Source: Escherichia coli (GTDB lineage: Bacteria; Pseudomonadota; Gammaproteobacteria; Enterobacterales; Enterobacteriaceae). From it: a stretch of 2,698 bases of DNA. Both the position numbers and the translations under genes were made by a program. The stretch lies in assembly GCF_003334255.1 (NCBI RefSeq), contig NZ_QOWU01000131.1; one strand, given 5' to 3'. The notes under the pieces were generated by a model that saw only the letters and a program-made list of their open reading frames with translations, ran no database searches and had not been told where the DNA came from. Below are positions 175 to 2,698 of the stretch, in pieces. How positions within the stretch are numbered: position 1 is the first letter of the stretch; every line of letters starts with the position of its first letter.

Positions 175-819
175 TTGTGCAATTTCGTGCGCTTTTGTGC
201 ATTTTTTATCTTGCGATTTTTGGGGGTGGGTGGTGATGATAATCATCTGTCTGAATCAGTGGTGTATTGCCGGGTGAGAACTGTGAAAAATTACTCATAT
301 CCTTATTTAACTTTTGTCACGCTTTCTGTTTTGGGGGGGATTTTTCTTTTTATTTGGTGGCGAAACGATGTTTACAGAATTACCTACCTTTATTCGTTCA
401 CGACAAACTGCCTTGTTTCAGTGTCTGTGGTGCTTTCGGTTTTTGTCTCACTGTGCCTGTTGAAAAAGAACCTGGTTGATCGGTCTAAATTTACCGGGGT
501 TACATCGTATCTTAAGTTTTTTTCGGGTATGTGCCTTCTTACCTGGATGATTCTGTTTACCCTCCTGGTTACGCTGATATATTTTCTTCCGGGTGAAGAT
601 TCATTCTATTCCGCTCCCTATGAGTACAGTCGCGGTAGCTCAAAAAGTTGTTCAGGGGCATTTGTTGATGATCCTGATTTGCAAAAAACAATCTTTATTT
701 GCTACCCATACGGTGACTATCAGGATGGTAATGTGATTTATGTGAAGAAGCGTGTGAATGCGCTGGGTGCGGTGGTCACCTATGCATACGCGACAAGCGG
801 CCGATTTCGGTTTGACTGA
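175..819 (+). CDS. putative small multi-pass membrane protein (hypothetical); start codon uncertain
   Basis: Frame open for 214 codons with stop TGA at 817-819. Translation shows three hydrophobic stretches (YLTFVTLSVLGGIFLFIWW, LVSVSVVLSVFVSLCLL, CLLTWMILFTLLVTLIYFL) followed by a ~75-aa Tyr/Phe-rich hydrophilic C-terminal region. No in-frame ATG until 529-531; candidate starts are TTG 175 (no SD) and GTG 283 (weak SD-like GGGTGAG at 272-278). Composition is T-rich and A-poor: by hand count, G+C is 22/60 in 301-360 and 23/60 in 361-420, versus 32/60 in 1981-2040. That bias suppresses stop codons, so the N-terminal half could be open by chance; a second frame (267-479) is also open here. Confidence 0.4.
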   Translation: MCNFVRFCAFFILRFLGVGGDDNHLSESVVYCRVRTVKNYSYPYLTFVTLSVLGGIFLFIWWRNDVYRITYLYSFTTNCLVSVSVVLSVFVSLCLLKKNLVDRSKFTGVTSYLKFFSGMCLLTWMILFTLLVTLIYFLPGEDSFYSAPYEYSRGSSKSCSGAFVDDPDLQKTIFICYPYGDYQDGNVIYVKKRVNALGAVVTYAYATSGRFRFD

Positions 820-868: not shown

Positions 869-1186
869 TCATCGCCCGGTTCTTGAGCTGATAATGCTTT
901 GCGTCAGCAGCTGCCAGCCCTCTTTCTGTTGCCCGTACTTGTCCTGATACCTGTTTACCTGCAAGTTTCCGTGCACCAGAATCAGATCGCCTTTTCTGTG
1001 TTTTGCCAGTTCTTCGTGCTGCTTCCCGAATGAAATAAGGTAAAGCCACATTGTGGTTGGCTGTTCTGCGCCATGGCAGGGTAGTGATACCGCCAGTTGT
1101 GCCGTTGTGACGTTGGTTCCTTTGGTTGTTCTCCTTGTGTTCGGGTCTGCTGCCAGTCGTCCATCTGTTGCAACCTGTGTTGGCAT
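869..1186 (-). CDS. single-stranded DNA-binding protein-like OB-fold protein, short form without C-terminal acidic tail
   Basis: ATG at 1186-1184 is preceded by GGGAGA (1197-1192); stop TGA at 871-869. The 105-aa translation aligns by eye with the OB-fold core of E. coli SSB recalled from memory: VATDGRLAADPNTRR against VILVGNLGQDPEVRY, and WLYLISFGKQHEELAKHRKGDLILVHGNLQVNRYQDKYGQQK against [43 protein letters not shown]. The protein ends right after the OB domain, with no Gly/Gln/Pro linker and no acidic DDDIPF-type tip. This is fold-level resemblance only and has not been searched. Confidence 0.6.
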   Translation of the reverse strand: MPTQVATDGRLAADPNTRRTTKGTNVTTAQLAVSLPCHGAEQPTTMWLYLISFGKQHEELAKHRKGDLILVHGNLQVNRYQDKYGQQKEGWQLLTQSIISSRTGR

Positions 1187-1218: not shown

Positions 1219-1557
1219 TTAGATGACTGGCAGCTCTTCGCCAGCGCCGTAGATAAACAGAATTCTCTTCATGATTTCGCTGCGCTTGCAGGCTTCAATT
1301 ACGGACGGCTCTTGTTGCCATTCTGCCCGTTGCGCCAGCTCCAGTCGTTCCTTTTCCGTTGGCTTCCGGTAATGCGTTATCTTGTCCGTGTACCCGTCCA
1401 CAACCAGCAGCCCTTCGCGTACCATCTTTCCGGCGGCCTGATTAATGATGGTCCTTTTCACGCCCAGTTTTTCAACCAGCTCTGGTGCGCTGAAGCGTGC
1501 GTGCGTTTCCAGGTAGCGTAAAATGATTACCTTTCCGGTCATTCTGGGTGTCTTCAT
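1219..1557 (-). CDS. putative winged-helix / HTH DNA-binding protein (hypothetical regulator)
   Basis: ATG at 1557-1555 is preceded by a perfect AAGGAG (1570-1565) with a 7-nt spacer, and overlaps the upstream stop as ATGA. Stop TAA at 1221-1219. The 112-aa product begins MKTPRMTGKVIILRYLE. The segment SAPELVEKLGVKRTIINQAAGKMVREGLLVV looks like an HTH recognition helix plus wing, as in Lrp/MarR-like regulators. The ORF track extends the frame to an ATG at 1626, but that start lacks an SD and lies inside the upstream gene. Confidence 0.65.
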   Translation of the reverse strand: MKTPRMTGKVIILRYLETHARFSAPELVEKLGVKRTIINQAAGKMVREGLLVVDGYTDKITHYRKPTEKERLELAQRAEWQQEPSVIEACKRSEIMKRILFIYGAGEELPVI

Positions 1558-1772: not shown

Positions 1773-2177
1773 TTACCTGCGTGATTGCCTGCTGGCGGCC
1801 GAATGCACATAGCGGACAATTGCCGCTTTTCGGTTAACGACGGCCAGCGTTCTTGCCAGTTCTTCGTTGAGTTTTCTGGTCTGTTTTTCGTGGTATGCCT
1901 GCATGATTTTTCCTACGGGAGTCAGTGGTTCAGGCTCTGATATGGCGCGACGAGGGCGCACGGCAACGATGAATGCGCTTCTGTCGGTGTTGGTTCTTGC
2001 AGTCAGGATGTCTGTCATGACGGTATCTGTGCTGCGATCGGGGTTTGCGATCGTGATCTCCAGTTCGTCGCCTGGCTGTGGTCGAACACTGACGCCGCTC
2101 AGCGTCAGTGCCGGAATGCGTCCACTCATGATGGCGCTGAAATCATGGCGCTGGAGTACACAATGGAATCGTGTCAT
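1773..2177 (-). CDS. hypothetical protein (134 aa)
   Basis: ATG at 2177-2175 is preceded by GGAGGTGA (minus strand, about 2192-2185) and overlaps the stop of the upstream ORF (ATGA at 2177-2174). Stop TAA at 1775-1773. Codon usage is consistent with the rest of the operon. I recognise no family. Confidence 0.65.
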   Translation of the reverse strand: MTRFHCVLQRHDFSAIMSGRIPALTLSGVSVRPQPGDELEITIANPDRSTDTVMTDILTARTNTDRSAFIVAVRPRRAISEPEPLTPVGKIMQAYHEKQTRKLNEELARTLAVVNRKAAIVRYVHSAASRQSRR

Positions 2178-2698
2178 GGGTTCACCTCCGGTTGATCTGC
2201 TGCCACCAGGCTTCGTGATTTCTCATCCCAGTGCACAATCCGCCCGTCAGGCAGGCGAACGCGTGCACCTCTGTGTACGGAAAGTGCTGCGCCACTGTGT
2301 AGCTCCTCGCCCGTCGCGCTCAGTGCCGACTTGATTACGGTGGTGGTGACGTCAGTCAGCGGCAATGCTGTACGCACATGTATGACGTCATCGGGTGTGG
2401 TGGGGCCGCCGGTTTTCACGGTTTTTGTGTCAGATGGCGCATCTTTCAGCTGCCTGGTGAGTTGTTTTCGCTCTGTGGGGGTCAGTGACCTTAACCACTC
2501 ACCCAAATCACCTCCCGGGACGACCAGTTTTTGTTCTTTCCTGGTTTCCGGTGGTGGGTTTTTACCCTCTCCGGTGTCTGTTTTTTCATCATGGGGACAG
2601 TTATTGCCACGAGTCCAAGGTGCGGCGAAGCCGCCCCCAACGTCAAAATCCTCGTCCGTGCTGTTGTCGGCTTTCGCTTCTTTTCTGACCAGTTTCCA
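2174..2698 (-). CDS. C-terminal part of a larger hypothetical protein, 5' end beyond the window; alternatively a 110-aa protein from internal TTG 2506
   Basis: I translated this minus-strand frame by hand from 2698 to the TGA at 2176-2174 and found no stop. Codon usage is enterobacterial-like (all Lys as AAA, Leu mostly CTG). The off-window N-terminal side is a Lys/Glu/Gly/Pro-rich segment (...DEDFDVGGGFAAPW...EKTDTGEGKNPPPETRKEQK...), followed by a ~110-aa C-terminal region. A TTG at 2506-2504 sits 4 nt after GGGAGGTGA (2516-2508), so an internal or alternative start is possible. The other minus frame, also open to the edge, is rich in rare Arg codons and was rejected. Confidence 0.55.
   Translation of the reverse strand, partial: WKLVRKEAKADNSTDEDFDVGGGFAAPWTRGNNCPHDEKTDTGEGKNPPPETRKEQKLVVPGGDLGEWLRSLTPTERKQLTRQLKDAPSDTKTVKTGGPTTPDDVIHVRTALPLTDVTTTVIKSALSATGEELHSGAALSVHRGARVRLPDGRIVHWDEKSRSLVAADQPEVNP

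Follow-up and report, generated by a model that had tools for sequence, protein, structure and literature searches.

The DNA analysed here, a window of 2,698 nucleotides from Escherichia coli, carries a large minus-strand open reading frame that runs off one edge, and within this frame a near-perfect SD sequence precedes an in-frame TTG codon. The question raised by this locus was whether the TTG is an internal start from which the C-terminal part of the protein is made as a nested gene, as an earlier note on this DNA had proposed, or whether the arrangement is a coincidence of codons, the alternative that the same note had allowed. The interval in question very probably represents the final 174 codons of gpA, an ordinary replication-initiator gene from a P2-family prophage, with the phage origin lying inside its coding sequence, the SD-TTG being a by-product of the codons and no conserved internal start being present.

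The gene at the window edge

2174–2698, minus strand: 3' part of gpA, the last 174 codons plus stop (translation; stop TGA at 2174–2176)
2174–2189, minus strand: translational-coupling junction, with the genuine SD GGAGGTGA of the next gene (2182–2189) and an ATGA overlap (2174–2177)

Translation of the minus-strand frame met no stop as far as the window edge, the first codon inside the window being residue 664 of gpA. The sequence was extended with an E. coli prophage copy, L001, which is 99.3% identical to the window and in which the full-length gene encodes a P2-family replication endonuclease (gpA) of 837 aa, annotated in RefSeq as 'replication endonuclease' (WP_016237832.1). The expectation that the protein would be longer than 174 aa, and that its identity would be decided by the unseen N-terminal part, was borne out, as Pfam PF05840 (Phage_GPA) matched aa 189–514 of the L001 protein (3.6e-108). 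The catalytic domain lies outside the window, and the full-length gene was identified through the near-identical L001.

The full protein also matched PHROG 91, 'nicking at origin of replication', with 1.2e-243, and the 174 aa of the window matched it with 1.5e-11; no NCBIfam profile matched either the full protein or the tail. P2 gpA (761 aa; NC_001895) belongs to the same Pfam family and shows the same HUH and double-tyrosine motifs. The motif HWHMLVF (aa 449–455 of the L001 protein, outside the window) aligned with HWHMMLF of P2, and YIATYIGKN (Y503 and Y507, also outside the window) with YIAKYISKN; the active-site tyrosines of P2 gpA are Y450 and Y454. The two proteins were 31% identical across 688 aligned positions, the present one being 76 residues longer. 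In L001 the neighbouring genes encoded portal, terminase, a P2-family capsid protein, GPO scaffold, gpM, tail protein X and lysozyme; this gene order is P2-type and gpA occupies the early/replication operon location. Membership of the gpA family was assigned because of the PF05840 and PHROG 91 matches, the HUH and double-tyrosine motifs and the P2-like operon context. As judged from these homologies, gene A encodes an HUH-type endonuclease that initiates rolling-circle replication. Both the kind of gene and the kind of origin described below are already known, and RefSeq already carries the gene as a replication endonuclease.

The SD-like sequence and the in-frame TTG

2504–2506, minus strand: in-frame TTG (Leu728), the proposed internal start; opens a 110-aa TTG ORF (2174–2506) in the ORF list
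2507–2516, minus strand: SD-like sequence GGGAGGTGAT, codons for Gly-Gly-Asp (GGA GGT GAT)
2528–2596, minus strand: hypervariable low-complexity linker PHDEKTDTGEGKNPPPETRKEQK (aa 698–720), delimited by identity comparison

The appearance of a 110-aa TTG ORF in the ORF list would suit a separate gene with a TTG start, the open frame upstream of it being accidental. The extended sequence, however, contained no in-frame stop upstream, the frame was open through 837 codons in L001 and in four divergent loci, and the 64 codons upstream of the TTG in the window encode conserved gpA sequence. This reading is already refuted and deserves practically no credence.

A nested in-frame gene was the second alternative, in which initiation at the TTG (2506) by means of GGGAGGTGAT would yield the C-terminal 110 aa with a function of its own. 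Gene A/A* of phiX174, an experimentally established case of an in-frame internal start in a rolling-circle initiator gene of HUH type, is the natural analogue of this idea and served as its model. The minus strand reads CCG GGA GGT GAT TTG, and the description of a near-perfect SD 4 nt before the TTG held: the GGAGG core (2511–2515) ends 4 nt before the TTG, and the full match of 9–10 nt abuts it. The predicted pairing of the site to the 16S 3' end was -15.7 kcal/mol. The full gene has 32 in-frame internal start codons, and of these the TTG is preceded by the strongest pairing, on par with that of the genuine SD of the next gene (-15.4). When the codons of the gene were shuffled synonymously, an equally strong SD arose somewhere in the gene in 24% of the shuffles, and none of 1000 gave an in-frame start with an SD of that strength, although p < 0.001 per gene still permits a few such SD-start sites per genome by chance. 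The site also sits at the linker/tail boundary; the low-complexity linker noted ahead of the C-terminal region was confirmed, as was the tail region behind it. The strength and the spacing of the SD-TTG are compatible with initiation.

Against the nested gene stood, in the first place, the states and pairing energies of the site compared across about 10 lineages. One derived base, G in place of A at 2514 (GAA to GGA, Glu to Gly), makes the GGAGG core perfect, and the GGA state was confined to the window, L001, L021 and L022, a subclade of at least 99% identity. Relatives 96–98% identical to the window had GAA in place of GGA, and the remaining lineages showed GAA or GAC (-11.1 kcal/mol) or no SD (about -3 kcal/mol, as in L007 and L008). 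The start codon was itself lost in five lineages, L002 and L003 having CCG (Pro) in its place, L009 TTA, and L007 and L008 CTG, so that two of the five had neither start nor SD. Upstream of the TTG, the minus strand of the interval showed no promoter-like site, and TTG is a weak start codon. Additionally, Rfam gave no match in the interval, and no frameshift signal was found around the SD when all three frames were inspected by eye.

Stand-alone homologues of about 110 aa, which the earlier note had suggested looking for, were not found either. A tblastn search of the 110 aa against 50,697 phage records returned nothing, and 5.8 billion proteins, searched through a word index with both the single sequence and a nine-sequence profile, held no stand-alone homologue. 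With phmmer, run exhaustively on 1.84 billion representatives, four matches were obtained, none of them a stand-alone homologue. Among the hits of these searches P0012 was a frameshifted pseudogene piece, and a further hit, P0009, was rejected as spurious, being a low-complexity protein of 1464 aa with QLPDGRVAYWE repeats. Contig look-ups identified the homologues of the 110 aa as gpA C-termini, gpA fragments starting at a contig end or pseudogene pieces. Furthermore, the A* protein of phiX174 retains the catalytic part of its parent, whereas the hypothetical product here would be without the nuclease domain, comes from a site that is not conserved and has no known product.

A conserved internal start is unsupported because the SD is limited to one subclade, the TTG is replaced elsewhere and stand-alone homologues are missing from the databases searched. 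The nested gene is accordingly regarded as improbable, and coincidence proved the better of the two readings offered at the outset. On the comparison of lineages, the perfect SD arose by one recent Glu-to-Gly substitution, and the SD-TTG is best described as a by-product of the Gly-Gly-Asp-Leu codons and not as a conserved internal initiation site. Within the subclade of at least 99% identity, some adventitious initiation at the TTG may nevertheless occur, given the strength and the spacing of the SD. There the same substitution may have created a strong ribosome-binding site, such that the prophage may also make a free 110-aa gpA tail as a newly born nested gene; this too is improbable, and slightly the more so.

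A third alternative was a selected translational pause site, at which the SD-like sequence would hold the ribosome once the nuclease body and the codons of the origin (see below) had been translated, which would help gpA to act in cis on its own template. Such cis action is known for P2 gpA, and most E. coli lineages retained a moderately SD-like GAAGGTGAT or GACGGTGAT (-11.1 kcal/mol). The bases kept in these lineages are nevertheless explained by the conserved Glu/Asp-Gly-Asp codons, L007 and L008 are without any SD-like sequence at the site, and SD-induced pausing is itself disputed. The dS around the SD-TTG was low (0.065) only against L004 and L005, and reached 0.42–0.68 against L002 and L003; low dS being limited to the L004/L005 comparison, it marks a recombination tract and not selective constraint. 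Such a pause site is highly improbable. An RNA or DNA element at the SD-TTG, considered in view of the low dS against L004 and L005, was rejected given the high dS against L002 and L003 and the several synonymous differences of L009 around the site.

The predicted origin embedded in the gpA coding sequence

2597–2634, minus strand: predicted origin, made up of a GC hairpin and, 3' of it, the nick-site core (homology to the P2 origin and conservation)
2622–2634, minus strand: GC-rich hairpin GCGGC-TTC-GCCGC, directly 5' of the core, within codons for GFAA
2597–2620, minus strand: nick-site core CCTTGGACTCGTGGCAATAACTGT, within codons for PWTRGNNC; aligns to GCCTCGGAGTCCTGTCAATAACTGT of P2

The predicted origin at 2597–2634 was absent from the earlier note and is a more significant feature of the interval than the SD-TTG. 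In the P2 record a 'nick site at ori' is annotated at 29892, inside gene A, and the block around it aligned to the core, with 32 of 38 nt identical. The codons for APRSPVNNC in P2 are the counterpart of those for AAPWTRGNNC here, at the equivalent position in the gene. The 24-mer core did not vary in any relative that covers it and was identical in the 10 loci compared, including loci with gpA tails only 32–35% identical, and synonymous change was nearly absent from it (dS 0–0.08, versus 0.14–0.88 in the gene body).

A perfect hairpin stem of 5–7 bp ending 3–5 nt before the GGA was present in all of the 10 P2-family origins, with at least five different stem sequences among them. By a formal count 91.8% of cells were paired and two pairs carried compensatory changes, whereas slid controls were 33–71% paired and had no compensatory pairs; a stem of 5 bp or more occurred in just 5% of the 26-nt windows of the gene. 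These compensatory changes force coupled amino-acid changes, with GGC/GCC in some lineages and GAC/GTC in others (Gly/Ala versus Asp/Val). Constraint at the DNA level beyond the need of the protein is indicated by the core identity, the low dS and the compensated stem.

Owing to the P2 homology, the invariant core, the near-zero dS and the compensatory stem changes, positions 2597–2634 were assigned as a homologue of the P2 origin of replication, and a putative origin function was taken over from P2, with the nick predicted at or next to position 2616. By analogy with P2, gpA would be made from the early operon, would nick the origin inside its own gene and would stay covalently bound to it via a tyrosine (Y503/Y507), and the host replication machinery would then perform rolling-circle replication. 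What is said here of P2 is based on annotated GenBank records and general knowledge.

In P2 the origin likewise lies inside the 3' part of its own gene, with a GCGGC-NNN-GCCGC hairpin and a core of the form ...GGA.TC.TG.CAATAACTGT. Coliphage 186 (NC_001317) is likewise a phage with a rolling-circle initiator and an origin in its own A gene, annotated at 28576 'by similarity with P2'. As in the present type of origin, its GC hairpin stands 3 nt before the core GGA; it differs in its stem (AGGGCGC/GCGCCCT with a 4-nt loop), in the core bases GGAGTTCTGTCAATAAC and in its protein of 694 aa. In phage P88 the origin hairpin and core were identical to those of L007.

The C-terminal tail and the mosaic junction

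2444–2503, minus strand: conserved helical motif GEWLRSLTPTERKQLTRQLK of the gpA tail, present across all homologues compared
2342–2443, minus strand: second variable spacer of the tail (aa 749–782), predicted disordered (pLDDT <50)
2210–2341, minus strand: terminal tail module, one helix and then three beta strands, with conserved GARVRLPDGR..W (conserved columns; low-confidence model)

Downstream of the origin, the minus strand reads in the order of hypervariable linker, C-terminal tail and a stop that overlaps the next start and its SD. The linker was the most variable stretch among the homologues, with 25–67% aa identity versus 84–96% for the body of the protein. In a predicted model the tail itself would begin with two short helices, which a disordered spacer separates from a module of one helix and beta strands. 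The AlphaFold2 model of the tail had a mean pLDDT of 51.8 and a pTM of 0.28, too poor for a fold search; it placed helices in the GEWLRSLTPTERKQLTRQLK motif, a block with pLDDT 72–75. The second spacer showed 35–38% aa identity and a dN/dS of 0.56–1.09, and the terminal module a dN/dS of 0.21–0.54.

Linker and tail are strongly diverged from P2 gpA, which carries a similar RLTRSERLQITR, a weak match to the helical motif. When the tail profile was compared with the P2 tail by hhalign, only a 12-residue motif was aligned, at a non-significant probability of 1.4%, and a PDB sequence search with the same profile gave nothing below E = 0.2. The tails of relatives matched columns 621–721 of 855 of PHROG 6857, with E down to 4e-16, and the tail of the window itself matched that profile weakly (E = 5.6e-4). 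The gpA-like proteins of PHROG 6857 are among the closest known relatives, together with the replication endonucleases of phage P88 and related Xuanwuvirus phages. The full protein aligned to PHROG 91 up to column 746, where the C-terminus of P2 gpA aligns too. The homology of the tail to that of P2 is based on this shared alignment to the PHROG 91 and 6857 profiles and not on direct comparison. Since all homologues of the 110 aa were gpA C-termini, contig-end fragments or pseudogene pieces, the tails matched the full-length family PHROG 6857 and the full protein aligned to PHROG 91, the tail is, on these alignments, an integral part of gpA.

The next gene is an ORF of 134 aa (ORF134, 1773–2177) with a 4-nt overlap with the gpA stop (ORF list and RefSeq annotation), and the same stop/start overlap was annotated in L002–L005. 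In P2, too, the gene A stop runs into the start of the small ORF that follows; the P2 ORF is Orf91 (DUF3850), whereas the present one belongs to PHROG 14984. Compared with L002 and L003, the gene body was 93–96% identical, the tail 57–60% and ORF134 59–60%; the tail variant of the window was found in 38 of 5426 complete E. coli genomes. The tail thus changes quickly and is swapped by recombination along with the gene behind it, and the origin and the linker mark the mosaic junction where the gpA tail and the downstream genes have been swapped together. This joint exchange may point to a co-inherited partner with which the tail works. Our best guess, purely an inference, is that the tail would act as a binding module on a flexible tether, its partner being perhaps the host helicase or the downstream protein inherited along with it.

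As a discovery these results are small, since for P2 and 186 the location of the origin within gene A is textbook knowledge. They remove a false lead, the internal start having failed the conservation test, and they place the previously unannotated origin of the present prophage, as predicted above, at 2597–2634. Should the free tail of the subclade be real after all, the partner-binding tail of an otherwise cis-acting initiator would have gained a form that acts in trans and could modulate replication or compete for the partner, and the nested gene would have been observed a single mutation after it arose. The locus also illustrates cleanly, on a small scale, how the demands of a DNA hairpin override protein coding, with paired codon changes keeping the stem.

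The 3' end of a P2-family gpA gene

The minus-strand frame at 2174-2698 comprised 174 codons plus a stop and, on translation, was stop-free up to the window edge. The chromosome of E. coli DETEC-S792 was 99.3% identical over the entire window (coverage of at least 80% was found in 22 records, that is, 22 of 5426 complete E. coli genomes). There, the window sits within a P2-like prophage with genes for portal, terminase, P2-family capsid, GPO scaffold, gpM, tail protein X and lysozyme, and the frame forms the 3' part of a gene annotated as a "replication endonuclease" of 837 aa, with 3 differences in the 525 shared nt of the gene. The full protein matched Pfam Phage_GPA (PF05840; aa 189-514, E = 3.6e-108) and PHROG 91 ("nicking at origin of replication", E = 1.2e-243), and shared 31% of 688 aligned positions with P2 gpA. 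This alignment included an HUH motif (HWHMLVF) and a two-tyrosine motif (YIATYIGKN) whose tyrosines pair with P2 Y450 and Y454; these HUH and tyrosine residues have a catalytic role.

The expectation of the earlier note, a large protein whose identity is set upstream of the window, was thus borne out by the 837-aa ORF, PF05840, PHROG 91 and the P2 gpA alignment. A separate 110-aa gene starting at TTG was excluded, since the upstream frame in the extended sequence had no in-frame stop. The feature is the 3' end of an ordinary P2-family gpA gene with an embedded origin, and both P2-family gpA and this origin-in-gene type were already known.

The replication origin embedded in gpA

When the window was compared with deposited phages by megablast, only about 2581-2648 was matched, inside their replication genes. 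This part, which had been overlooked in the earlier note and lacks annotation as an origin in the RefSeq records, contains the following feature:

2597-2634, minus strand: predicted origin block GCGGCTTCGCCGCACCTTGGACTCGTGGCAATAACTGT (read from 2634 to 2597), with the nick predicted by alignment at about 2616

The block was identical to P2 GCGGCATCGCCGCGCCTCGGAGTCCTGTCAATAACTGT at 32 of 38 bases, despite the proteins being just 31% identical. The P2 record annotates a "nick site at ori" at 29892, inside the aligned block, and it is this position that corresponds to about 2616. On the grounds of this similarity, the origin in the phage 186 record is likewise placed within gene A.

A 24-nt core, CCTTGGACTCGTGGCAATAACTGT, was identical in all 10 fetched relatives covering it, even where tail identity was as low as 32-35%, and synonymous divergence at codons 680-698 was 0-0.08 vs 0.14-0.88 in the gene body. 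Directly 5' of the core, all 10 P2-family origins had a GC-rich stem with perfect pairing over 5-7 bp, ending 3-5 nt before the GGA; stems of at least 5 bp occurred in just 5% of the 26-nt windows of the gene. The variants were GCGGC/GCCGC, GTGCGGC/GCCGCAC, GGGCGGC/GCCGCCC, GGGCGAC/GTCGCCC, GGGCGC/GCGCCC and AGGGCGC/GCGCCCT. In a small sample of seven related sequences in one register, 91.8% of the cells were paired and two pairs had changed on both sides, whereas slid controls were 33-71% paired with 0 compensatory pairs. Since this stem is translated, a compensatory base change on both arms alters two amino acids jointly: some lineages carry the codon pair GGC/GCC (Gly/Ala), others GAC/GTC (Asp/Val). 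The invariant core, the low synonymous divergence and the kept stem show constraint at the DNA level, and the GC hairpin with the nick-site core at 2597-2634 (minus strand) is a putative P2-type origin inside the gpA coding sequence.

Additionally, an almost identical nick-site core, CCTTGGACTCGTGTCAATAACTGTCC, was found in Shewanella phage Dolos (Inoviridae; L019 81-107, record 2146-2172), directly downstream of, not inside, a gene annotated "nicking at origin of replication"; no clear GC hairpin was detected at the Dolos core. This suggests a gpA and origin module common to P2-like tailed phages and an inovirus.

The sequence resembling an internal start

The elements that the earlier note had described (open frame, linker, SD and in-frame TTG) were all found in the sequence, and are listed here with those of the gene end:

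2174-2506, minus strand: nested TTG ORF of 110 aa (ORF listing)
2504-2506, minus strand: TTG
2511-2515, minus strand: GGAGG core
2507-2516, minus strand: extended anti-SD match GGGAGGTGAT
2528-2596, minus strand: K/E/G/P-rich linker PHDEKTDTGEGKNPPPETRKEQK
2174-2177, minus strand: ATGA overlap of the gpA stop and the next ATG
2182-2189, minus strand: genuine SD of the next ORF, GGAGGTGA
1773-2177, minus strand: ORF134 (134 aa, PHROG 14984), coupled to gpA by the ATGA overlap and strong SD

The site reads CCG GGA GGT GAT TTG GGT GAG TGG on the minus strand. Predicted pairing with the 16S 3' end (-15.7 kcal/mol) was the strongest among the 32 in-frame ATG/GTG/TTG codons of the complete gene and on par with the genuine SD of the next gene (-15.4). 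An equally strong SD ahead of an in-frame start was obtained in 0 of 1000 synonymous-codon shuffles of the gene, and anywhere in the gene in 24% of a 300-shuffle subset.

The site was compared in close relatives with nucleotide identities of 96-98% (L010-L012) or at least 99% (L001, L021, L022), five E. coli prophages with tails about 71-75% identical in DNA (L002-L005, L024) and three contig-end fragments with more distant tails (L007-L009).

Table. State of the site and predicted pairing.
Window, L001, L021, L022: GGA GGT GAT TTG; -15.7 kcal/mol
L010-L012, L004, L005, L024: GAA GGT GAT TTG; -11.1 kcal/mol
L002, L003: GAA GGT GAT CCG (Pro, no start); -11.1 kcal/mol
L009: GAC GGT GAT TTA (no start); -11.1 kcal/mol
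L007: GAA AGC GGC CTG; -3.5 kcal/mol
L008: GAA GAG AAC CTG; -2.9 kcal/mol

The perfect SD is therefore one derived A-to-G change (Glu to Gly), restricted to the subclade of at least 99% identity. The start codon was missing in five lineages. The earlier note had itself named absence of the SD-TTG in homologues as evidence against the internal start, and this absence was found.

The search for stand-alone homologues of about 110 aa, also proposed there, was negative. No match was obtained by tblastn of the 110 aa against 50,697 phage records, and a word-indexed search of 5.8 billion proteins (single sequence and profile) and an exhaustive search of 1.84 billion representatives returned short entries only, none of them a stand-alone homologue. 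Most source-named short entries were labeled "replication endonuclease, partial"; the three looked up (P0006-P0008) each start at base 1 of their own contig, and the upstream gpA sequence APWTRGNNC was retained in every fragment long enough to reach that far. P0012 (63 aa) is a piece of a frameshifted pseudogene. P0009, a eukaryotic-looking low-complexity protein of 1464 aa from the representative library, was a spurious hit: its LPDGR..YWE repeats (QLPDGRVAYWE in tandem) resemble the short tail motif VRLPDGRIVHWDE, probably by chance.

Upstream, the minus strand showed no promoter-like site, and Rfam gave no match. The nested-gene reading was not supported, and a newly created internal start active only in the subclade of at least 99% identity is very improbable. 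Adventitious initiation within that subclade is conceivable. In the phage 186 record, four nested in-frame starts are annotated in tum (L020 6083-6501); P2-like phages thus do offer a documented case of internal initiation in frame, though the gene is another one.

The gpA tail and the neighboring genes

The C-terminal 115 residues have changed far more rapidly than the remainder of gpA: in amino acids they were 50-60% identical where the gene body was 84-96% identical, with a dN/dS of 0.4-0.8 vs 0.11 in the body. Two parts were conserved, GEWLRSLTP..RKQLT.QLK and a terminal module around GARVRL.DGR...W (dN/dS 0.21-0.54). A poor AlphaFold2 model (pLDDT 51.8) suggests two short helices, then a disordered spacer, followed by one more helix and three strands. 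Relatives' tails matched PHROG 6857, whose members are full-length gpA-like proteins, at columns 621-721 of 855 (E down to 4e-16; 5.6e-4 for the window's own tail), and the full-length protein aligned to PHROG 91 as far as column 746, the P2 tail covering columns 679-752. The tail thus belongs to gpA proteins as an integral and variable region. The variant in the window is rare, being present in 38 of the 5426 complete E. coli genomes.

The 105-aa protein at 869-1186 (minus), annotated as single-stranded DNA-binding, matched only columns 89-188 of 271 of PHROG 44, the phage SSB family, and so corresponds to an OB-fold core that lacks the long C-terminal part usually present. The 112-aa product of 1219-1557 (minus), annotated as a MarR family regulator, had its best match in PHROG 142 "Ren-like exclusion protein" (1.1e-28), with weak PADLOC winged-helix matches, and may have an exclusion or moron function rather than being a plain regulator. 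The oppositely oriented ORF at 175-819 (plus; annotated CDS 283-819) is AT-rich (39-41% GC vs 51-58% elsewhere) and encodes a hydrophobic 178-aa product whose C-terminal half matches PHROG 1416; PADLOC gave no match for this ORF. With the replication genes on one side and the portal gene on the other, it occupies the place of old and tin in P2 and is thus a candidate lysogenic-conversion or defence moron.

The 4-nt overlap of gpA with the next gene is likewise annotated in L002-L005, and P2 gene A overlaps Orf91 in like manner. In most relatives, a gpA tail of this type is followed by ORF134. Compared with the prophages L002 and L003, the gpA body was 93-96% identical (dS 0.14-0.27) and the tail 57-60% (dS 0.71-0.75), and ORF134 was 59-60% identical to its counterparts. 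The contrast in dS and the divergent ORF134 place a mosaic (recombination) junction near the origin and linker (about 2528-2640); the tail and ORF134 have another history than the body, the tail being exchanged together with the downstream genes. ORF134 is a candidate partner of the tail, for which our best guess is a flexibly tethered partner-binding module.
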